The position numbers and the translations under genes are program-made. Of a stretch of 21,318 nt of DNA, positions 6,118-20,989 are shown piece by piece. Below the pieces are notes generated by a model. That model was not told the origin of the DNA and made no database searches. It saw only the letters and a program-made list of their open reading frames with translations. Position 1 is the first letter of the stretch; the number at the start of each line of letters is the position of its first letter. The stretch lies in IMG/VR virus record IMGVR_UViG_2660238462_000004. One strand, 5' to 3'. Source of the DNA: a virus (Duplodnaviria > Heunggongvirae > Uroviricota > Caudoviricetes).

Positions 6118-6146
6118 TTGCTATGGTTGGTTAATCATGCGTTAAT
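6118..6146 (+). promoter_or_regulatory. Candidate cspA-like promoter driving a long 5' UTR
   Basis: ttgcta (6118-6123), 17-nt spacer, gttaat (6141-6146), in an AT-rich upstream region; predicted leader ~145 nt to the csp ATG, comparable to the cspA leader. Confidence 0.35.
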
Positions 6147-6297
6147 GGTGTTCTGGTTTGTTACAAAATTATCTGAAGCAGTCATTGTTATAATTTTATT
6201 ATTTGTACCTCTTGAGATTTCCTTGTTGGTTTTTCTCTCTGATATTTTTTTTCGGACCATTCTGCCCAAGGGCTAACTTCTTCAAAAGGTAATAATG

Positions 6298-6510
6298 ATG
6301 TCTAACAAAATGACTGGTTTAGTGAAATGGTTTAACCCTGAAAAAGGTTTTGGTTTCATCACGCCGAAAGATGGTAGCAAAGATGTGTTTGTCCATTTCT
6401 CAGCTATTCAGAGCAACGATTTCAAAACGTTAACTGAGAATCAGGAAGTCGAATTTGGTATTGAGAACGGACCTAAAGGCCCCGCGGCTGTTCATGTTGT
6501 GGCACTTTGA
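6298..6510 (+). CDS. cspI: Cold-shock protein, CspA family (CspI-like)
   Basis: 70 aa [70 protein letters not shown] with RNP1/RNP2-like motifs (KGFGFI, VFVHF); SD aagg 8 nt upstream. Confidence 0.9.
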
Positions 6511-6709
6511 GGTAGAAAATATTACAAACCATATTCACTTTAGATGCCCGTGTTGCCATGGTTCTCAGTATAGAACATCATCTTTTGATGTTTCTGACAG
6601 GAATCCTTTCGGGGCAAAATGTATCTTTTGTAAATCAATGATGATTACATTTGATAATATTTCACAATACTTAAATGTTAGCCGTCTATCGTTAGATTTA
6701 AGAAAGTGA
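6494..6709 (+). CDS. Small zinc-ribbon protein (YnfQ/YmcF-like) downstream of csp; start codon uncertain
   Basis: Frame encodes ...[57 protein letters not shown] with CxCC...CxxC. The first ATG (6494) lacks an SD and overlaps csp; a GAGG (6509-6512) lies 8 nt upstream of an in-frame ATT (6521), which would give a 62-aa product. Confidence 0.5.
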
Positions 6710-8957: not shown

Positions 8958-11057
8958 ATGGGTTTTTCATCAGCCCGAAATTTGGGAAGGGACATATCGG
9001 CAGGATTTTCCCCACCACGTCGCATGCCGATTTCGGAGGCTGTTAAAAAATTCATGCGTGTTCCCAAGGGGGCTGGTAACTCGGTGCCATGGGATCCTGA
9101 ACTGACACCCTACATCATTGAGCCCATGAACTGCCTGGCATCGCGTGAATACGATGCGGTGATTTTTGTTGGTCCTGCGCGAACAGGGAAGACCATTGGT
9201 CTGATCGATGGATGGATTGTCTATACCATCGTTTGCGATCCTTCGGACATGCTCGTTGTGCAGATGACCGAAGATAAGGCCCGCGAGCATTCAAAAAAGC
9301 GCCTCGACAGAACGTTCAGAAGCAGTGCGGCGGTAAAGAAAAGAATGAGTCCACGTCGTAATGACAATAATGTCCATGATAAGACGTTCAGGGATGGCTC
9401 GTTCCTTAAAATTGGTTGGCCCTCGGTCAACATTATGTCGTCGTCGGATTACCGGTTTGTCGCCTTAACCGATTACGACCGTTTTCCGGAGAATATCGAC
9501 AGCGAGGGTGATGGTTTCTCCCTGGCCTCAAAACGTACCACCACATTTATGTCCGCCGGGATGACTCTGGTGGAGAGCTCGCCGGGACGTGACATCTGCG
9601 ACAGCAAATGGCGACGTAAGTCGCCTCATGAAGCGCCACCGACGACTGGTATTCTTTCCCTTTACAATCGTGGTGACCGCCGCCGCTGGTACTGGCCATG
9701 TCCGCACTGCGGTGAATATTTTCAGCCAGCCATGGATGCCATGACCGGCTACCGTAATGAACCGGATCCCTTTAAAGCCAGTGAGGCGGCGTATCTACTT
9801 TGCCCGCACTGCAGCGGCATTATCACGGCGGAGAAAAAGCGTGAGCTCAATAGTGCAGGAGTCTGGTTGCGTGAAGGTCAGGTCATTGATTGTAACGGCA
9901 ACGTTTCCGGTGAACCGCGCCGCTCCCGTATCGCCAGTTTCTGGATGGAAGGGCCAGCTGCTGCGTATCAGACCTGGGCGCAACTGGTTTACAAATTACT
10001 GACTGCAGAACAGGAGTATGAAGCGACAGGAAGTGAAGAAACACTCAGGGCGGTTATCAACACCGACTGGGGATTACCTTATCTTCCCCGCGCCAGCATG
10101 GAGCAACGAAAAAGTGAACTGCTTGAGCAGCGGGCAGAGCCAGTTCCTTCCCGCAGTGTGCCGGATGGCGTTAATTTTCTTGTGGCGACAGTGGATGTGC
10201 AGGCGGGACGTCATCGCCGTTTTGTGGTTCAGGTAACGGGCTATGGCAGCCGTGGCGAACGCTGGATTATTGATCGTTACAACATCACGCAGTCATTGCG
10301 CGGTGACAGCGACGGGGAGAGCCAGCGAATTGATCCGGCCAGCTATCCGGAAGACTGGGATGTCCTGCTGACGGATGTTTTTCATAAAAGCTGGCCGCTG
10401 GCCTCCGATCCTTCTCAACAAATGCGACTGATGGCAATGGCGGTGGACTCCGGCGGTGAAGACGGGGTCACTGATAATGCCTATAAATTCTGGCGTCGTT
10501 GCCGTCGTGATGGCCTTGGTAAACGTATTTACCTGTTTAAGGGCGACAGCATCCGGCGCGCAAAACTGATCACCCGTACATTCCCTGATAACACCGGACG
10601 AACGGGCCGACGGGCGCAGGCCGCAGGTGATGTGCCGCTCTGGCTTCTTCAGACGGATGCACTGAAAGACCGGGTGAATAACGCGTTATGGCGTGACTCG
10701 CCAGGTCCCGGCTATGTGCATTTCCCTGACTGGCTGGGGAGCTGGTTTTACGACGAACTGACGTATGAAGAGCGGAGCAGTGACGGGAAATGGAGTAAGC
10801 CGGGTCGCGGTGCCAACGAAGCTTTTGACCTGATGGTGTATGCCGAGGCTCTGGTCATTCTGCATGGATACGAAAAGATCCGCTGGCCGGATGCACCGGA
10901 GTGGGCGAGCCGGGAAACCTGGCTGGAGTGTGTCCCGGACAGTACCGAACCGTCATCCTCACCGGAACCGGTATCCACGCCTGTTAAAAAACAAAAACGG
11001 AAGAAAACAGTAACTGACGATGTTAACCCCTGGCTGACTTCCGGAGGATGGTTATGA
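8958..11057 (+). CDS. Terminase large subunit (gpA family)
   Basis: 699 aa; Walker A VFVGPARTGKTIG; Cys-rich CPHCGEYF and CPHC motifs; strong SD aggagg; placed between TerS and W/portal. Confidence 0.9.
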   Translation: MGFSSARNLGRDISAGFSPPRRMPISEAVKKFMRVPKGAGNSVPWDPELTPYIIEPMNCLASREYDAVIFVGPARTGKTIGLIDGWIVYTIVCDPSDMLVVQMTEDKAREHSKKRLDRTFRSSAAVKKRMSPRRNDNNVHDKTFRDGSFLKIGWPSVNIMSSSDYRFVALTDYDRFPENIDSEGDGFSLASKRTTTFMSAGMTLVESSPGRDICDSKWRRKSPHEAPPTTGILSLYNRGDRRRWYWPCPHCGEYFQPAMDAMTGYRNEPDPFKASEAAYLLCPHCSGIITAEKKRELNSAGVWLREGQVIDCNGNVSGEPRRSRIASFWMEGPAAAYQTWAQLVYKLLTAEQEYEATGSEETLRAVINTDWGLPYLPRASMEQRKSELLEQRAEPVPSRSVPDGVNFLVATVDVQAGRHRRFVVQVTGYGSRGERWIIDRYNITQSLRGDSDGESQRIDPASYPEDWDVLLTDVFHKSWPLASDPSQQMRLMAMAVDSGGEDGVTDNAYKFWRRCRRDGLGKRIYLFKGDSIRRAKLITRTFPDNTGRTGRRAQAAGDVPLWLLQTDALKDRVNNALWRDSPGPGYVHFPDWLGSWFYDELTYEERSSDGKWSKPGRGANEAFDLMVYAEALVILHGYEKIRWPDAPEWASRETWLECVPDSTEPSSSPEPVSTPVKKQKRKKTVTDDVNPWLTSGGWL

Positions 11058-11266
11058 ACCAGAATGATATCGAAGCCATGATTCAGCGTTATACGGAAGC
11101 TGAAATGGCGGTGCTGGACGGAAAATCCGTCACCTTTAATGGTCAGCAGATGACCATGGAAAACTTATCTGAGATCCGGCAGGGACGGCAGGAGTGGGAG
11201 CGCCGCCTTGCGGCTCTGATTACACGACGACGGGGGCATCCCGGGTATCGGCTGGCGAGGTTCTGA
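11054..11266 (+). CDS. Head-tail joining protein gpW-like
   Basis: ~70 aa MNQNDIEAMIQRYTEAEMAVLDGKSVTFNGQQMTMENLSEIRQGRQEWERRLAALITRRRGHPGYRLARF; resembles the end of lambda W; start overlaps the TerL stop and the stop overlaps the portal start. Confidence 0.75.
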   Translation: MNQNDIEAMIQRYTEAEMAVLDGKSVTFNGQQMTMENLSEIRQGRQEWERRLAALITRRRGHPGYRLARF

Positions 11267-12774
11267 TGGCAATTCTTGATGATGTGATTGGCGTTTTTTC
11301 ACCAGGATGGAAAGCGGCAAGGCTGCGTTCCCGTGCGGTGATCCAGGCTTATGAGGCCGTAAAAACGACGCGGACACACAAAGCCCGACGGGAGAACCGA
11401 ACTGCCGACCAGTTAAGCCAGTACGGGGCCGTGTCGTTACGTGAGCAGGCCCGTTACCTTGATAACAACCACGATCTGGTTATTGGTGTATTTGACAAGC
11501 TGGAAGAACGGGTGGTGGGGAAAAACGGGATTATTGTCGAGCCACATCCGGTATTACGCAATGGGGCCATTGCCCGTGACCTGGCTGCGGAGATTCGCAC
11601 CCGATGGAGTGAATGGTCTGTCAGCCCGGAAGTCACCGGGCAGTTTACCCGTCCGATGCTGGAACGTCTGATGCTTCGTACCTGGCTGCGCGATGGTGAG
11701 GTGTTTGCCCAGATGGTTTCCGGGCGCATAAACAGCCTGACGCCTTCTGCCGGTGTTCATTTCTGGCTGGAGGCGCTCGAGCCGGACTTTATTCCCATGA
11801 CCAGTGATGAGAGCAACAGGCTGAATCAGGGCGTGTTTGTTGATGACTGGGGGCGTCCCGAAAAATATCTGGTGTATAAAAGCCGTCCCGTATCCGGACG
11901 GCAGATGGAAACCAAAGAAGTGGATGCAGAGCGAATGCTGCATCTTAAATTTGTTCGCCGTCTGCACCAGATGCGCGGGACGTCTTTATTGTCCGGTGTG
12001 CTGATCCGCCTCAGTGCTCTGAAAGAGTATGAAGATTCTGAGCTGACTGCAGCAAGGATCGCCGCTGCTCTGGGGATGTACATCCGGAAAGGCGACGGGC
12101 AGAGCTATGAAGCGGATGGTAATGGCAGCAAGGATAAGGAACGCGAGCTTACCATTCAGCCAGGCATTATTTACGATGATCTGAAACCCGGCGAAGAAAT
12201 CGGAATGGTGAAGTCGGATCGCCCCAATCCTAACCTTGAAACTTTTCGTAATGGTCAGTTGCGTGCCGTGGCGGCGGGCAGTCGTCTGAGTTTTTCCAGT
12301 ACAGCGCGCAACTATAACGGCACTTACAGCGCCCAGCGTCAGGAGCTGGTTGAATCCACTGATGGCTACCTGATCCTGCAGGACTGGTTTATTGGTGCCG
12401 TCACCCGTCCGATGTATCGTGCCTGGCTGAAACAGGCTGTGGCATCCGGTGTTATCAGGCTACCCCGCGATCTTGACCGTTCTTCACTGTATACCGCGGT
12501 GTATTCCGGACCGGTGATGCCGTGGATTGACCCTGTTAAGGAGGCTGAGGCCTGGAAAATCCAGATTCGTGGTGGAGCGGCGACAGAATCAGACTGGGTA
12601 CGTGCTGGTGGTCGTAATCCGGATGATGTCAAACGTCGGCGCAAGGCCGAAATTGATGAAAACCGCAAGCTGGATCTGGTATTTGATACCGATCCGGCCA
12701 GTGATAAAGGAGGCAGCAGTGCCGCAACGAAACGACATGAGCCGCAGCACACCGACGACCAGTCCGAAGAATAA
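11266..12774 (+). CDS. Portal protein (lambda gpB family)
   Basis: 502 aa from ATG 11266 (ATGA overlap with the W stop); the track ORF starts upstream at 11194 inside W, which I treat as a frame extension. Confidence 0.9.
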   Translation: MAILDDVIGVFSPGWKAARLRSRAVIQAYEAVKTTRTHKARRENRTADQLSQYGAVSLREQARYLDNNHDLVIGVFDKLEERVVGKNGIIVEPHPVLRNGAIARDLAAEIRTRWSEWSVSPEVTGQFTRPMLERLMLRTWLRDGEVFAQMVSGRINSLTPSAGVHFWLEALEPDFIPMTSDESNRLNQGVFVDDWGRPEKYLVYKSRPVSGRQMETKEVDAERMLHLKFVRRLHQMRGTSLLSGVLIRLSALKEYEDSELTAARIAAALGMYIRKGDGQSYEADGNGSKDKERELTIQPGIIYDDLKPGEEIGMVKSDRPNPNLETFRNGQLRAVAAGSRLSFSSTARNYNGTYSAQRQELVESTDGYLILQDWFIGAVTRPMYRAWLKQAVASGVIRLPRDLDRSSLYTAVYSGPVMPWIDPVKEAEAWKIQIRGGAATESDWVRAGGRNPDDVKRRRKAEIDENRKLDLVFDTDPASDKGGSSAATKRHEPQHTDDQSEE

Positions 12775-14746
12775 TTCCTGGTTCAGGATGCAGGCTGGTC
12801 ACCAGAGTGACGCGGATATTTATATTTATGACGAGATTGGTTTCTGGGGTGTTACAGCGAAGCAGTTTATCAGTGATCTGAATGCACTGGGCGATATCAC
12901 CCACATTAATCTCCATATTAATTCACCGGGTGGCGATGTCTTTGAAGGCATCGCCATTTTTAATGCGCTGAAAACACATGGTGCGTCCATTACCGTTTAT
13001 GTCGACGGTGTGGCGGCGTCAATGGCGTCGGTCATTGCGATGGTGGGAAACCCGGTCATTATGCCGGAAAACACCTTCATGATGATTCATAAACCATTTG
13101 GCTTTACGGGCGGTGATGCGGAGGACATGCGCACCTATGCCGACCTGCTCGATAAAGTTGAGGCGGTTCTGTTACCCGCTTATGCACAGAAAACCGGGAA
13201 AACCACCGATGAAATTGCTGCCATGCTGGCGGATGAGACCTGGATGTCCGGTGCCGAATGTCTGGCACATGGATTTGCTGATCAGGTAACGCCAGCCGTT
13301 AAGGCAATGGCATGTATTCAGTCAAAACGTACAGAGGAATTTAAAAAGATGCCGGAATCCATTCGAAACATGATTACTCCGCCACGCAACAGTGCTCCAC
13401 GCGTACAGGATAATGAACCTGAAGCCTCCCGGACGCCAGTGCAGGCAGCAGCACCCGTGGTGGATGAAAACAGCATCCGTGCGCAGGTACTGGCAGAGCA
13501 AAAAGCGCGTGTAAACGGTATTAATGATCTGTTTGCCATGTTTGGCGGGCGTTATCAGACGCTGCAGGCTCAGTGTCTTGCCGATCCTGAATGTTCGCTG
13601 GAGCAGGCCCGCGAAAAGCTGTTGAACGAGATGGGGCGCGAGTCCACGCCATCCAATAAAAATACCCCGGCTCATATTTATGCCGGTAACGGTAATTTTG
13701 TGGGGGACGGGATCCGCCAGGCGCTGATGGCGCGTGCCGGATTTGAAAAAACCGAACGTGATAATGTCTACAACGGGATGACCCTGCGTGAATATGCCCG
13801 TATGTCACTGACTGAACGGGGTATTGGGGTTTCCAGTTATAACCCGATGCAGATGGTCGGTGCGGCGTTCACACACAGTACGTCTGACTTCGGTAATATT
13901 CTGCTGGATGTTGCGAACAAAGCCATTCTGCAGGGCTGGGAAGATGCCCCTGAAACCTATGAACAGTGGACGCGGAAAGGTCAGTTGTCTGATTTTAAAA
14001 TTGCCCATCGTGTGGGTATGGGTGGCTTCAGTGCTCTGCGTCAGGTGCGTGAAGGGGCGGAATATAAATACGTCACCACCGGAGATAAACAGGCCACTAT
14101 TGCACTGGCGACCTATGGCGAGCTGTTCAGTATCACCCGTCAGGCCATTATCAATGATGATCTGAATATGCTGACCGATGTCCCGATGAAACTGGGCCGT
14201 GCGGCGAAATCCACTATTGCCGATCTGGTTTATGCCATTCTGACGTCTAACCCGAAAATCTCCACAGATAATGTAAGTCTGTTCGATAAAGCGAAACATG
14301 CAAACGTACTGGAGAGCGCTGCAATGGACGTGGCATCGCTGGATAAAGCCCGCCAGTTGATGCGCGTTCAGAAAGAGGGGGAGCGTCATCTGAATATTCG
14401 TCCTGCGTTCGTACTGGTACCGACGGCGATGGAGTCTGTTGCTAACCAGGTCATTCGCTCCTCAAGTGTCAAGGGGGCTGACATTAACGCCGGTATTATT
14501 AACCCGGTGAAAGATTTTGCGACCGTTATTGCAGAGCCTCGTCTTGATGATAACAGCCAGACCACCTTCTACCTGGCTGCGTCAAAAGGCTCCGATACGA
14601 TTGAAGTGGCTTATCTCAACGGTGTGGATACGCCATATATTGATCAGATGGAGGGCTTCAGTGTGGATGGCGTGACAACGAAAGTGCGTATTGACGCCGG
14701 TGTCGCGCCAGTTGATCACCGCGGTCTGGTGAAATGTACGGCGTAA
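12737..14746 (+). CDS. Fused prohead protease (ClpP/S49-like) - scaffold - major capsid protein (HK97-fold)
   Basis: N-terminal ~200 aa carry a ClpP-like region (HINSPGGDVFEGIAIFNALKTHGASITVYVDGVAASMASVIAMVGNPVIMPENTFMMIHKP); the C-terminal ~330 aa look like an HK97-type capsid protein. One uninterrupted frame; the start (ATG 12737 or 12788) overlaps the portal end. Confidence 0.85.
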   Translation: MSRSTPTTSPKNNSWFRMQAGHQSDADIYIYDEIGFWGVTAKQFISDLNALGDITHINLHINSPGGDVFEGIAIFNALKTHGASITVYVDGVAASMASVIAMVGNPVIMPENTFMMIHKPFGFTGGDAEDMRTYADLLDKVEAVLLPAYAQKTGKTTDEIAAMLADETWMSGAECLAHGFADQVTPAVKAMACIQSKRTEEFKKMPESIRNMITPPRNSAPRVQDNEPEASRTPVQAAAPVVDENSIRAQVLAEQKARVNGINDLFAMFGGRYQTLQAQCLADPECSLEQAREKLLNEMGRESTPSNKNTPAHIYAGNGNFVGDGIRQALMARAGFEKTERDNVYNGMTLREYARMSLTERGIGVSSYNPMQMVGAAFTHSTSDFGNILLDVANKAILQGWEDAPETYEQWTRKGQLSDFKIAHRVGMGGFSALRQVREGAEYKYVTTGDKQATIALATYGELFSITRQAIINDDLNMLTDVPMKLGRAAKSTIADLVYAILTSNPKISTDNVSLFDKAKHANVLESAAMDVASLDKARQLMRVQKEGERHLNIRPAFVLVPTAMESVANQVIRSSSVKGADINAGIINPVKDFATVIAEPRLDDNSQTTFYLAASKGSDTIEVAYLNGVDTPYIDQMEGFSVDGVTTKVRIDAGVAPVDHRGLVKCTA

Positions 14747-16423: not shown

Positions 16424-17167
16424 ATGACCACACCAAATCCACTGGCAAAAACGAAAGGTGCGGGAACGACGTTCTGGATGTACACCGGCAAGGGCGATGC
16501 GTTTGCGAACCCTTTATCGGACACTGACTGGCTGCGTCTTGCGATGGTGAAGGATCTGCAACCTGGCGAAATGACCGCTGATGCAGAAGATGACACTTAT
16601 CTCGATGATGAAGATGCAGACTGGAAAACGACAACCCAGGGGCAGAAATCCGTCGGTGATACTTCGGCGACGCTGGCCTGGCGTCCGGGTGACAGCGGAC
16701 AGAAAAAACTGGTTCAGTTGTTCGACTCCGGTGAAGTCTGCGCGTTTCGTATCAAATATCCCAACGGCACTGTTGATGTTTTCCGTGGCTGGCTGAGCTC
16801 ACTGGGTAAAACCATTGCCTCAAAAGACGTGATGACCCACACAGTGAAAATCAGCGGTGTGGGGCGTCCGTATCTGGCAGAGGAAGGCACTGAAACAGTG
16901 AGCGTTACCGGGCTGACGGTGGCACCGGCATCTGCCAGTGTAAAAGTGGGAGCAACCACCACGCTGACCTTTACAGTAAAACCTGACGGAGCCAGTGACA
17001 AAGCGATCAGTGTGCATTCGACAGATCCACAGACTGCCACGGTGACCCTGAACGGGCTTGTGGCCACGGTGAAAGGCGTGAAGCAGGGCAGTGTCAGCAT
17101 TGTGGGCATGACTTCTGACGGCGATTTTGTGGCAGTGGCTGCGGTGGCTGTCAGCGCCGCAGGTTAA
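16424..17167 (+). CDS. Major tail protein gpV-like with C-terminal Ig-like (Big_2-type) domain
   Basis: MTTPNPLAKTKGAGTTFWMYTGKGDAFANPLSDTDW... parallels lambda V; C-terminal ~90 aa are a Thr/Val-rich beta-strand domain; strong SD aaggagg 5 nt upstream. The track ORF starts at GTG 16418. Confidence 0.9.
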   Translation: MTTPNPLAKTKGAGTTFWMYTGKGDAFANPLSDTDWLRLAMVKDLQPGEMTADAEDDTYLDDEDADWKTTTQGQKSVGDTSATLAWRPGDSGQKKLVQLFDSGEVCAFRIKYPNGTVDVFRGWLSSLGKTIASKDVMTHTVKISGVGRPYLAEEGTETVSVTGLTVAPASASVKVGATTTLTFTVKPDGASDKAISVHSTDPQTATVTLNGLVATVKGVKQGSVSIVGMTSDGDFVAVAAVAVSAAG

Positions 17168-17187
17168 CAGGACGATACTCATCATTT

Positions 17188-17211
17188 GCCCCGGTTATCC
17201 GGGGCTTTTTT
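17188..17211 (+). terminator. Intrinsic terminator after the major tail gene
   Basis: gccccgg-ttat-ccggggc (7-bp GC stem) followed by tttttt, 20 nt after the V stop. Confidence 0.6.
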
Positions 17212-17224
17212 GCAGGTGGAGAAC

Positions 17225-17614
17225 ATGATGTTTCTGAAACAGGGCACGTTTAATTATGAAAAGCAGTCCGTGGTGCTCAGTGAGCTGTCCGGGCTGCAGA
17301 GAATTGAATATCTGGCGTTTGTTCAGCAGCGAACGGCAAAGTTTGATGCCGAAGAGGGAGAACTGCCGGAGGCTGAACGACAGATTGCTTTTCTGCGGAT
17401 GGGGATGGATATCAATGCCTGGCTGGTTTCCCGCTCACTGTGGAATGCGGAACAGTCTCAGGATGTTGAGACGCTTTGCGCATCCGTTATTACAACATGG
17501 TCGTATGATGCCCTGGGAGCGGGGGCGGAGATGGTTCTGTCGCTGAGCGGTATGGGAGCCATTGAGAATGCCGGGGATTTGGAGCATGAGGTGCTGACGC
17601 CGGAAAAGTCCTGA
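17225..17614 (+). CDS. Tail assembly chaperone gpG-like
   Basis: MMFLKQGTFNYEKQSVVLSELSGLQRIEYLAF... parallels lambda G (MFLKTESFEHNGVTVTLSELSALQRIEHLA); ATG at 17225 or 17228. Confidence 0.8.
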   Translation: MMFLKQGTFNYEKQSVVLSELSGLQRIEYLAFVQQRTAKFDAEEGELPEAERQIAFLRMGMDINAWLVSRSLWNAEQSQDVETLCASVITTWSYDALGAGAEMVLSLSGMGAIENAGDLEHEVLTPEKS

Positions 17615-17952
17615 CGCGGGAAATGCAGTTTGTCATGCGGCTTGCCCGGGAGTTCAGGCGGGCAGACTGGCGGCGGATGCTGTCGGAAATGTCGGCCACT
17701 GAGCTTGGTGAGTGGGGCGATTATTTCCGGATGCAGAGCTTCAGTGATGTGTGGATGGATGCGCAGTTTGCCTCGCTGAAGGCATTGATCGTGAGAATGG
17801 TGTCCGGCAGCAGTGATGCTGCGGTGGCTGATTTCAGCCTTTTACCGGAAGAGAACGGGATACCGGAGCGAACGGACGAAGAACTGATGCATCTTGGGGA
17901 AGGTATTTCCGGAGGTGTGCGTTATGGACCAGATAGCCAACCTGGTCATTGA
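17225..17952 (+). CDS. Tail assembly chaperone G-T fusion via programmed -1 frameshift near 17602-17608 (T-frame portion to 17952)
   Basis: The T-like frame (phase 1) is open across the end of G (phase 2), i.e. exactly -1. The G frame ends ...ccg gaa aag tcc tga and the -1 frame reads gcc gga aaa gtc ctg acg cgg gaa atg..., continuing MQFVMRLAREFRRADWRR...; conserved G/T arrangement in lambdoid tails. Confidence 0.55.
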
Positions 17953-20900
17953 TTTGGGGATTGATGCGGCAGAGTTTAAAAATGAAATTCCCCGTATCAA
18001 AAACCTTCTGAATGGTGCAGCCAGCGATGCAGAACGGTCTTCTGCCCGTATGCAGCGTTTTATGGAGCGTCAGACTCAGGCCGCCCGGCAGACAACGCAG
18101 GCGGCGTCTTCGGCTGCAACAGCCGCATCCGTCCATGCGCAGACGGTGGAGAAGAACGCACAGGCTCATGAACGCATGGCCCGCGAGGTGGAGAAAACCC
18201 GCCAGCGTATGGAGGCACTGAGCCAGAAAATGCGCGAGGAACAGGCGCAGGCCATGGCTCTGGCGGAGGCTCAGGATAAAGCAGCTGCTGCGTTTTATCG
18301 TCAGATTGACAGTGTGAAACAGGCCAGTGCGGGGCTGCAGGAATTACAGCGTATTCAGCAGCAGATCCGACAGGCCAGAAACAGTGGCGGGATTGGTCAG
18401 CAGGATTATCTGGCGCTGATTTCTGAGGTTACGGCGAAAACCCGTGTTCTTACGCAGGCTGAGGAAGAGGCTACCCGACAGAAAGTGGCGTTTATCCGTC
18501 AGCTTAAAGAGCAGGCAACCCGCCAGAATCTTTCTTCTTCTGAGTTGCTTCGTGCTAAGGCTGCCCAGCTGGGGGTAAGCAGTGCTGCAGAAGTGTATAT
18601 CCGCAAAATGGAGCAGGCAGGAAAAGCCACGCATTCGCTGGGTCTGAAAAGTGCAGCGGCCCGCCAGGAGATAGGCGTTCTGATAGGTGAACTGGCCCGC
18701 GGCAATTTAGGGGCGCTGAGGGGATCCGGGATAACGCTGGCTAACCGTGCCGGATGGATAGACACTCTGATGTCACCGAAAGGCATGATGCTTGGCGGGG
18801 TTATTGGCGGTATTGCCGCGTCCGTCTATGGTCTGGGTAAAGCCTGGTATGACGGTCAGAAGGAGGGGGAAGAATTTAACCGCCAGTTGTCGCTGACGGG
18901 GCATTATGCCGGAGTCACTGCCGGGCAGCTGTGGACGCTCAGTCGTGCTATTTCCGGGAATGGTATCACGCAACATGCTGCAGCCGGTGTGCTGGCTCAG
19001 GTGGTGGGGAGTGGTGCATTTCGTGGAAACGATATCGGTATGGTGGCGAGAGCTGCCGCACAGATGGAGCGATCGGTTGGCCAGTCGGTCAGCGATACCA
19101 TAAATCAGTTTAAGCGGCTGAAGGATGATCCTGTAAATGCCGCGAAGGCTCTGGACAATGAGCTGCATTTTCTTACTGCCACTCAGCTTGAGCAGATACG
19201 TGTCCTTGGGGATCAGGGACGGTCCAGTGATGCTGCACGGATAGCCATGTCTGCACTGGCAGAGGAAACCGGTCGGCGTACTGCGGATATTGATAATAAC
19301 CTCAATGCGCTTGGCAGTACGCTGAAGTATCTGTCTGATTTATGGAGTCGTTTCTGGGATGCGGCCATGAATATTGGTCGTGAAGACTCGCTGGATGAAC
19401 AGATTGCCGCTTTACAGGAGAAAGTGTCGCGGGCGAAAAGACTCCCCTGGACGGCATCATCTTCTCAGGTTGAATACGATCAGCAGCGTCTTAACGATCT
19501 TCAGGAGAAAAAACGCCAGAAGGATTTGCAGGATGCAAAAGAGCAGGCAGAGCGGAATTATCAGGAGCAACAGAAACGACGTAATGCTGAAAATGCTGCA
19601 CTGAACCGGATGAATGAAACGGAAGCAGCACGACATCAGCGTGAAATTGCGCGTATTAATGCCATGCAGTACGCCGATCAGGCTGTCAGGGATGCAGCGA
19701 TACAACGTGAAAATGAACGTTACGAGAAAGCCCTGGCATCCGGTAAGAAAAAAACACGCGAAACCCGTAATGATGAGGCCACCCGGTTATTGCTGCAGTA
19801 CAGTCAGCAACAGGCACAGGTGGAAGGACAGATTGCTGCTGCAAGACAGTCAGCAGGCATTGCCACTGAAAAGATGACAGAAGCGCATAAACAGCTTCTG
19901 GCTCTGCAGCAGCGCATCAGCGATCTGGACGGGAAAAAACTGACGGCAGATGAAAAGAGTGTGCTGGCCCGTAAAGATGAACTGATTCAGGCACTGACGC
20001 TGCTGGATGTAAAACAGCAGGAGCTTCAGAAACAGACGGCACTCAACGATCTGAAGAAAAAAACAATTCAGCTGACCAGTCAACTGGCTGAAGAAGAGCT
20101 CGCTCAGCGTCAGCAACATGACCTGGATATCGCCACGGTGGGTATGGGTGATCAGCAGCGGCAGCGATATCAGGTACAACTGAGTCTTCGCCAGAAATAC
20201 CAGCAACAGCTGGAGCAGTTGAGGCGGGATAGTGAGCAGAAAGGGACATATAACACGGATGACTACAGAAAGGCCGAGCAGGCGCTGACGGAGAGCCTGA
20301 ACCGACAACTGAATGAGAATCGCCGTTACTGGCAACAGCTTGAAGTTGTGCAGGGTAACTGGAAAAACGGAGTCCTGCGTGCATTTCAGGATTTTACCGT
20401 GGATGCAGACAATACGGCAGGAACAGCAGAACAGGTGTTCTCGTCAGCCTTCAGCAACATGGGAAATGGCCTGGCAACTTTTGTCACTACCGGCAAACTC
20501 AACTTCAAATCCTTCACCTCTTCGGTGCTGTCAGATATGGCGAAAATCCTGGCGCAGGCAACCATGATGAAATCGATAAAAGGGATTGGCAGTGTACTGG
20601 GATTTGATCTCAGCAGCCTTTCCCTGAATGCCAATGGGGGGATTTATCAGTCTGCTGATTTGAGTCGTTACAGTGGCACGGTGGTTAACCGTCCGACGTT
20701 TTTTGCTTTTGCAAAAGGCGCGGGTGTGATGGGGGAAGCGGGACCTGAAGCCATTCTGCCACTGCGTCGTGGTGCTGACGGTAAGCTGGGGGTTGTGGCG
20801 GATATTGGTGGTTCAGGTATGGCGATGTTTGCCCCGCAGTACAACATCGAGATCAATAACGATGGCACGAACGGGCAGATAGGTCCGGCTGCCCTGAAGG

Positions 20901-20989
20901 TGGTTTATGACCTTGGGAAAAAAGCGGCAGCGGACTTTATGCAACAGCAGGCCCGTGATGGTGGTCGGTTAAGTGGAGCATATCGGTAA
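17924..20989 (+). CDS. Tail tape measure protein gpH-like
   Basis: 1021 aa from ATG 17924 (SD ggaggtg); long Ala/Gln/Arg-rich helical regions; C-terminal motif NNDGTNGQIGPAALKVVYDLGKKAAADF matches the recalled lambda H C-terminus. Confidence 0.9.
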   Translation: MDQIANLVIDLGIDAAEFKNEIPRIKNLLNGAASDAERSSARMQRFMERQTQAARQTTQAASSAATAASVHAQTVEKNAQAHERMAREVEKTRQRMEALSQKMREEQAQAMALAEAQDKAAAAFYRQIDSVKQASAGLQELQRIQQQIRQARNSGGIGQQDYLALISEVTAKTRVLTQAEEEATRQKVAFIRQLKEQATRQNLSSSELLRAKAAQLGVSSAAEVYIRKMEQAGKATHSLGLKSAAARQEIGVLIGELARGNLGALRGSGITLANRAGWIDTLMSPKGMMLGGVIGGIAASVYGLGKAWYDGQKEGEEFNRQLSLTGHYAGVTAGQLWTLSRAISGNGITQHAAAGVLAQVVGSGAFRGNDIGMVARAAAQMERSVGQSVSDTINQFKRLKDDPVNAAKALDNELHFLTATQLEQIRVLGDQGRSSDAARIAMSALAEETGRRTADIDNNLNALGSTLKYLSDLWSRFWDAAMNIGREDSLDEQIAALQEKVSRAKRLPWTASSSQVEYDQQRLNDLQEKKRQKDLQDAKEQAERNYQEQQKRRNAENAALNRMNETEAARHQREIARINAMQYADQAVRDAAIQRENERYEKALASGKKKTRETRNDEATRLLLQYSQQQAQVEGQIAAARQSAGIATEKMTEAHKQLLALQQRISDLDGKKLTADEKSVLARKDELIQALTLLDVKQQELQKQTALNDLKKKTIQLTSQLAEEELAQRQQHDLDIATVGMGDQQRQRYQVQLSLRQKYQQQLEQLRRDSEQKGTYNTDDYRKAEQALTESLNRQLNENRRYWQQLEVVQGNWKNGVLRAFQDFTVDADNTAGTAEQVFSSAFSNMGNGLATFVTTGKLNFKSFTSSVLSDMAKILAQATMMKSIKGIGSVLGFDLSSLSLNANGGIYQSADLSRYSGTVVNRPTFFAFAKGAGVMGEAGPEAILPLRRGADGKLGVVADIGGSGMAMFAPQYNIEINNDGTNGQIGPAALKVVYDLGKKAAADFMQQQARDGGRLSGAYR

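Follow-up and report, generated by a model that had tools for sequence, protein, structure and literature searches.

A very probable programmed -1 frameshift on the heptamer G_GAA_AAG joins the tail assembly genes G and T of a lambdoid Escherichia coli prophage

We analysed a 21,318-nucleotide (nt) stretch of Caudoviricetes DNA (IMG/VR virus record IMGVR_UViG_2660238462_000004), referred to here as the window, at the junction of its tail assembly genes G and T. A programmed -1 frameshift on the heptamer G_GAA_AAG (positions 17602-17608) very probably yields a G-T fusion protein at this junction, while most ribosomes would make G. As judged from sequence comparison, the feature is real, almost certainly functional and an ordinary member of the lambda G/GT frameshift family. 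GGAAAAG is already known as a G/T slip sequence, from database annotation in N15 and Gifsy-1 together with family homology. We infer the occurrence of the shift, its efficiency and its two-tRNA mechanism from the comparisons described below. All features lie on the plus strand and are numbered by their position in the window.

Gene G (17225-17614) encodes a tail assembly chaperone of 129 residues as its zero-frame product, counted from the ATG at 17225; PGAP places the start at the second ATG, 17228. The protein matches TIGR01674 (E 9.7e-57) and PF06894 (E 1.8e-39) and carries the name gpG in the RefSeq annotation of E. coli genomes. The gene ends with the codons ACG CCG GAA AAG TCC TGA, with GAA beginning at 17603 and the stop codon at 17612-17614, one codon (TCC) past the slippery AAG. 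The -1 frame is closed upstream by a TGA at 17587-17589 and is open from 17590 up to the TGA at 17950-17952. The upstream TGA and the G stop set the 5' and 3' limits of a possible shift, so the frame change must fall within 17590-17614. This 25-nt overlap of G and T reads GGTGCTGACGCCGGAAAAGTCCTGA. The T segment of the predicted fusion (17608-17952, in the -1 frame from GTC at 17608) matches TIGR01715 (E 4e-40) and PF06223 (E 5.1e-15) and is collinear with lambda T. The whole predicted fusion comprises 242 residues, counted from the ATG at 17225. With these profile matches, the family identities of G and T are solid. A previous reading made without database searches (the sequence-only reading) had proposed a G/G-T chaperone pair with the T frame open over the last G codons in the -1 phase, and both statements hold.

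Within the overlap, GGAAAAG (17602-17608) is the only repetitive or slippery string. The zero frame reads it as GAA AAG, with GAA (Glu) in the P site and AAG (Lys) in the A site. After the slip it is read as GGA AAA, and the -1 frame goes on as AAA GTC CTG ACG CGG GAA ATG CAG TTT. The lambda sequence at the same place is TCT GCG GGA AAG TGT TCG, and its fusion goes on as AAA GTG TTC GAC GGT GAG CTG AGT TTT. The junction peptides are AGK-VFDGELSF in lambda and PEK-VLTREMQF in the window (hyphens mark the junction), and the two T peptides align without gaps from the first post-slip residue, K-VFDGELSFALKLARE in lambda and K-VLTREMQFVMRLARE in the window. The slip site had been placed at about 17602-17608 before, and this location is confirmed by the lack of any other slippery string in the overlap and by the collinearity with lambda. 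The heptamer was also rightly distinguished from the lambda G_GGA_AAG: it occupies the same codon pair and differs only at the third base (A17604, G in lambda). Measured against the X_XXY_YYZ rule, the heptamer starts with G_GA instead of three identical bases; its A_AAG part (17605-17608) provides the identical YYY and a Z that allows cognate re-pairing in the A site. The arrangement has three hallmarks of a lambda-type G/GT system, namely a G-family gene between V and the tape measure gene, a T-family domain in the -1 frame and a slippery site inside the overlap. Rfam and tRNA scans gave no match at the slip site.

We compared the junction with 148 loci carrying relatives of G, of which 80 were fetched from IMG/VR and 68 from bacterial assemblies represented by one genome per species; annotated phages were added later. 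Wherever G was complete, we located its stop, the reach of the -1 frame and any in-frame heptamer, which gave 149 usable sequences including the window. Clustering of the predicted fusions at 90% identity resulted in 28 lineages. They derive from Escherichia, Salmonella-type phages, Proteus, Xenorhabdus, Enterobacter, Citrobacter, Kluyvera, Kosakonia, Phytobacter, Buttiauxella, Erwinia, Serratia, Edwardsiella and others, and their G proteins are only 30-45% identical to that of the window. Either GGAAAAG or GGGAAAG is found in frame within the overlap at 149/149 loci, so that the alignment of related G/T regions, which had been suggested as a check on the site, comes out in its favor. GGAAAAG is the form in 24/28 lineages and GGGAAAG in the other 4/28. 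The term 'non-canonical' used in the sequence-only reading is thus correct in that the heptamer departs from the strict X_XXY_YYZ pattern by one base, but the site is not unusual, being present in 24/28 lineages and annotated in N15. It had seemed so because lambda, which carries the minority form, was the sole comparison.

The conservation is centered on the heptamer itself. The information content reaches 2.0 bits at six of its seven positions, and the third is only ever A or G (27 lineages). The tail of G preceding it mostly carries less than 1 bit, and the T-coding sequence downstream is conserved with codon periodicity. Depending on the lineage, the T frame opens 3 to 138 nt ahead of the heptamer, and the last base of the G stop lies 3, 6 or 18 nt past it. 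With both limits varying, the overlap windows of all lineages share nothing beyond the heptamer and 3 nt on either side. Among the 54 haplotypes of the window's own cluster, 120 of 725 columns are polymorphic, none of them between -9 and +8. The exact 90-mer around the site is present in 1112 E. coli records, and the same 90-mer with GGGAAAG swapped in occurs in 0 of about 1830; a GGGAAAG allele on the window backbone in E. coli was therefore rejected. Judged by this conservation, the slip site is more than a chance occurrence. In a neighbor-joining tree, GGGAAAG is found in a lambda/E. albertii clade nested among GGAAAAG lineages and on two deep single branches, and this scatter indicates that the two forms interconverted more than once.

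A third form was observed in the Stx2a-converting phage Stx2_95 (LC567838.1), which has TCA AAA AAG at the homologous G/T junction, a dnaX-type A_AAA_AAG. At least three heptamers (G_GAA_AAG, G_GGA_AAG and A_AAA_AAG) thus occupy one position in the lambda-type G/T family. Lambda-identical G/T sequences were also encountered on short contigs of very low coverage in assemblies labelled Pseudomonas, Shewanella, Paenibacillus, Kitasatospora, Oceanobacillus, Neobacillus, Leeuwenhoekiella, Chromatium, Pseudoxanthomonas and Psychrobacter. Most likely, these represent contamination with lambda control DNA.

In the mechanism we propose, a small share of the ribosomes translating G would slip back by 1 nt at 17602-17608 and read the T frame to 17952, producing a G-T fusion of about 242 residues, while the remaining ribosomes would stop at the TGA at 17612 and release G. 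Frameshifting to GT in lambda amounts to ~4% (PMC3296357), and a lambda G:GT ratio of about 30:1 is critical (PMC5009743); by analogy, an efficiency of a few per cent would be expected here. Homology with lambda further suggests that many G and few GT molecules would coat the tape measure protein H, with the T domain recruiting the major tail protein V. The heptamer itself would be the main determinant of the shift.

Both tRNAs are proposed to move. The A-site tRNA-Lys (mnm5s2UUU) would leave AAG for AAA, its fully cognate codon. The P-site tRNA-Glu (mnm5s2UUC) would pass from GAA to GGA, keeping the G1:C36 and A3:U34 pairs and taking a G2.U35 wobble. The tRNA-Glu anticodon is 3'-C36 U35 U34*-5', and facing GGA it forms G:C, G.U and A:U*, a wobble at the second position without a clash. 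The imperfect re-pairing of the P-site tRNA noted in the sequence-only reading is thereby borne out as a single G.U at the middle position. Changing A.U to G.U carries a modest price, only a few kJ/mol in a thermodynamic model of -1 frameshifting (PMC6787027), and G_GA is recognized as a non-identical X_XX in several RNA-virus heptamers (PMC5009743). E. coli has a single tRNA-Lys (mnm5s2UUU), which pairs better with AAA than with AAG (PMC4066793).

Of the heptamer positions, the first is the most informative about the P site. It is the third base of a four-fold degenerate codon of G and is untranslated in the fusion. It is nevertheless G in 28/28 lineages, in the codons GCG, CCG, CTG and ACG, against a background of 40% G at third positions of the same codon families in the same G genes. 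Positions 1-3 are seen only as G_GA, G_GG and A_AA, each of which leaves P-site re-pairing with a G.U at worst. The invariant G at a synonymous site and the restricted prefixes lead us to favor tandem slippage of two tRNAs, with moderate confidence, over a slip of tRNA-Lys alone. The same synonymous-site conservation suggests that a second-position G.U is tolerated in the P site.

Candidate stimulators were sought on both sides of the heptamer. The sequence-only reading had offered the stop codon 4 nt downstream, which does not fit the family. The G stop follows AAG directly in Proteus and Providencia lineages, after one codon in the window, Gifsy-1 and others, and after five codons in lambda, N15, phi80 and most Enterobacter, Kluyvera and Kosakonia lineages. 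With a spacing of 0, 1 or 5 codons, the stop was rejected as a conserved stimulator. The window TGA (17612) also lies outside the A site while GAA and AAG fill the P and A sites, one codon too far.

An interrupted hairpin is predicted at 17609-17651, directly past the heptamer, as the 5' part of a folded 92-nt stretch (17609-17700) with a minimum free energy of -38 kcal/mol. The z score of this fold is only -1.58, and a wider fold of 121 nt is no better than its shuffles (z +1.04). RNAalifold returned no consensus structure for 27 lineages. A GC-rich helix visible in several lineages (columns 8-18 with 39-49) reaches 68.7% pairing, with covariation not above that of shuffled alignments. A conserved downstream structure was rejected as a stimulator on these four null results. 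Upstream, GAGGTG (17588-17593) is a perfect 6-nt complement to the 3' end of 16S rRNA, located 8 nt ahead of the heptamer and overlapping the TGA that closes the T frame. This Shine-Dalgarno (SD)-like element may act as a local stimulator specific to the window. SD-like strings of at least 4 nt at 8-11 nt upstream are found in 9/27 lineages and are absent in lambda, and in the mEp460-type haplotype the sequence is GAGGCG, with the complement weakened to GAGG. As a family feature, an upstream SD-like stimulator was rejected on the count of 9/27.

Several points weigh against a programmed shift by two tRNAs. The lineages share ancestry, so the count of 28/28 overstates their independence, and codon preference also favors GCG, CCG and CTG. 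Folding of the window, and RNAalifold and covariation over 27 lineages, brought no stimulatory element to light. A text search of the open literature found no paper that discusses or measures GGAAAAG in phage G/T genes, and the PRFect supplement has no entry for it. In a reconstituted E. coli translation system, AUG GAA AAG served as an 'unfavourable, only one tRNA can slip' control and gave mainly the zero-frame product with wild-type EF-G (PMC6924986). Finally, A_AAG by itself, the classic shifty element of E. coli, shifts far more readily there than any other tetramer (PMC4066793).

Owing to this last point, a slip of tRNA-Lys alone on A_AAG is a possible, though distinctly less probable, account of the site. 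The re-pairing of tRNA-Glu would then be unneeded, as at NNA_AAG hexanucleotides such as IS1222 G_CGA_AAG. Sites of this type are in natural use (PMC5009743), and Peng et al. class G GAA AAG as a one-tRNA site (PMC6924986). A lone slip would, however, leave the bases 5' of the NNA codon free to vary, and position 1 is G in all lineages at a synonymous site. Positions 1-3 are restricted as well, although they code for part of a poorly conserved tail. In a reporter study, tetramers were moreover barely shifty without a strong pseudoknot (PMC4066793), and a conserved stimulator is not seen here. The single tRNA-Lys event on AAAAG put forward in the sequence-only reading is weakened by these observations, and tandem slippage is retained as the preferred mechanism.

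Far less probable is the expression of T as a separate gene from the ATG at 17623-17625, which would make a frameshift unnecessary. This in-frame ATG is the T start in public annotation, and a 109-residue coding sequence (CDS), 'phage tail assembly protein T', is present in E. coli RefSeq and phage records. As already remarked in the sequence-only reading, the ATG lacks an SD: no anti-SD-like string of at least 4 nt lies 4-18 nt upstream of it. An ATG at this position is found only in the window's cluster and in Edwardsiella, and is replaced by CTG, CGT, CAT, GTG or CGA in most lineages. The T start codon is not conserved, and in 12/28 lineages the first 22 codons of T include neither ATG nor GTG nor TTG. 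T-frame conservation starts right at the heptamer, and in every lineage the T frame opens just ahead of it. Since the ATG has no SD, the start codon varies and conservation runs from the heptamer onward, independent initiation of T is unlikely, and the ATG is probably unused. For lambda, GT is reportedly the sole form in which T is produced (PMC5009743, citing Levin et al. 1993).

The annotation of T as a separate CDS carries no biological information, because the lambda RefSeq record also lists T in this way. T is a stand-alone CDS in the inspected records of Ayreon, mEp460 and Tritos and in RefSeq E. coli genomes (one seen in detail, the others by feature names). The CDS corresponds to WP_001161009.1 (109 residues, 17623-17952), and later ATGs were chosen in Ayreon, phi80 and mEp043. 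None of the inspected PGAP or GenBank phage records joins G and T, which explains the absence of the G-T fusion from protein databases.

The least credible alternative is transcriptional slippage, in which RNA polymerase would add one A in the A4 run and spare the ribosome a slip. The site does contain a short A run, and bacteria show such slippage where the runs are longer (PMC5009743). Against it, A4 is far below the run lengths established to cause slippage, the conservation also takes in the G's at positions 1, 2 and 7, bases relevant to codon-anticodon re-pairing but not to slippage of the polymerase, and the lambda-type heptamer has only three A's.

The site refines the known frameshift rules and offers no new mechanism. 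Its first value is for annotation: the G-T fusion, very probably the real product, is missing from the inspected records, and the annotated T start is probably not used. Beyond that, the natural G/T slip sequence that predominates among Enterobacterales phages is one that served as a poorly slippery control in a reconstituted-system study. What remains of interest is that selection keeps a heptamer deemed poorly slippery by biochemists, that both slipping tRNAs would carry mnm5s2U34 and that the fusion is systematically omitted from public annotation. Tentatively, G_GAA_AAG could be a true two-tRNA site, read by two tRNAs with mnm5s2U34 and selected over G_GGA_AAG for a different or more modification-sensitive G:GT ratio. 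If so, its natural usage would contradict the 'unfavourable, one-tRNA only' view (PMC6924986), and the Tus/MnmA thiolation state of the host would affect these prophages, carried by about one third of complete E. coli genomes, more strongly than it affects lambda (PMC3296357).

The junction sits in the tail module of a lambdoid E. coli prophage, where the genes follow the order V, G, T frame and tape measure gene (H). The stretch containing G and T (17180-17960) is 98-99.9% identical to phages phi458, Ayreon, cdtI and mEp460, and is found in 1846/5426 complete E. coli genomes, including O157:H7. The upstream neighbor of G is the V homologue (16424-17167, coordinates taken from homologous annotation), which belongs to the lambda tail tube family (PF16461, E 2.7e-66) and has a C-terminal Ig-like domain (Big_2). 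Downstream, the homologue of the tape measure protein H (17924-20989, from the open reading frame (ORF) list and the annotation of homologous records) shares 29 nt with the end of T. A strong hairpin resembling an intrinsic terminator (17188-17211), formed by GCCCCGG TTAT CCGGGGC and followed by TTTTTT, separates V, which stops at 17167, from G, which starts at 17225. Terminators are annotated at the matching place in N15, mEp460 and Ayreon. The hairpin could hold the expression of G, T and H below that of V unless it is read through under late-gene antitermination.

Two further features lie outside the tail genes. A full-length match to the Rfam cspA thermoregulator (RF01766, 109.8 bits, E 1.2e-27) at 6140-6556 precedes and overlaps a 71-residue ORF (6295-6510), and the locus looks like a prophage-borne cold-shock protein gene with its own RNA thermosensor. 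A 739-residue ORF (12527-14746), read in another frame, follows the putative portal ORF (11194-12774) with an overlap of ~250 nt and may be an HK97-type gene in which protease, scaffold and capsid are fused.

The best-known relative of the G/T junction is that of lambda, whose G/G-T programmed -1 frameshift was reportedly established by Levin, Hendrix and Casjens (1993) and followed up by Xu, Hendrix and Duda (2004, 2013, 2014). Lambda and the window share the TIGR01674 and TIGR01715 families, the V-G-T-H order, T in the -1 frame, a homologous slip codon pair and a collinear junction. Several differences can be observed. The heptamer is G_GGA_AAG in lambda and G_GAA_AAG in the window, so the window P-site tRNA is that for Glu instead of Gly and re-pairs with a G.U at the middle position. 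The G stop is located five codons past the site in lambda and one codon past it in the window. The window T lacks the C-terminal repeat extension of lambda T, and the G and T proteins are only 38-39% identical.

Outside the tail gene family, two classes of sites resemble the window heptamer in part. At the A_AAG sites of IS1222 (G_CGA_AAG) and B. subtilis cdd (A_CGA_AAG), a type associated with Licznar et al. (2003) and Sharma et al. (2014), tRNA-Lys likewise moves from AAG to AAA, and the P codon ends in A without perfect re-pairing (PMC5009743, PMC4066793). In the window, by contrast, GGA still pairs with tRNA-Glu through a G.U, and position 1 is conserved. While the IS sites lean on strong pseudoknot or SD stimulators, such stimulators were not found here. 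The G_GAN_NNN sites of RNA viruses (insect-specific flaviviruses, dianthoviruses, umbraviruses and mesoniviruses) depart from X_XXY_YYZ in the same way and share the GAN P codon and the second-position G.U on GGA (Atkins et al. 2016; PMC5009743). They differ in being read by eukaryotic ribosomes with tRNA-Asp, in their UUU-type A site and in their strong downstream structures.

Among phages, the same heptamer is found at the G/T junction of N15, phi80, mEp043, Gifsy-1 and the Providencia phage PSTCR8lys. In N15 (NC_001901), GGAAAAG at 10027..10033 is annotated in genes 14/15 as a misc_feature, 'slippery sequence for -1 translational frameshift', at the same G/T position as in the window. The N15 stop is five codons downstream, the preceding codon is GCG (CCG in the window) and the proteins fall on another branch of the family. 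The Gifsy-1 genes STM2596/STM2595 (NC_010392) reside in a Salmonella prophage and have a different upstream G tail. They nonetheless share the exact CCG GAA AAG TCC TGA of the window, with a G that is 55% identical, and their T is annotated as 'part of ... gpG by translational frameshifting'.

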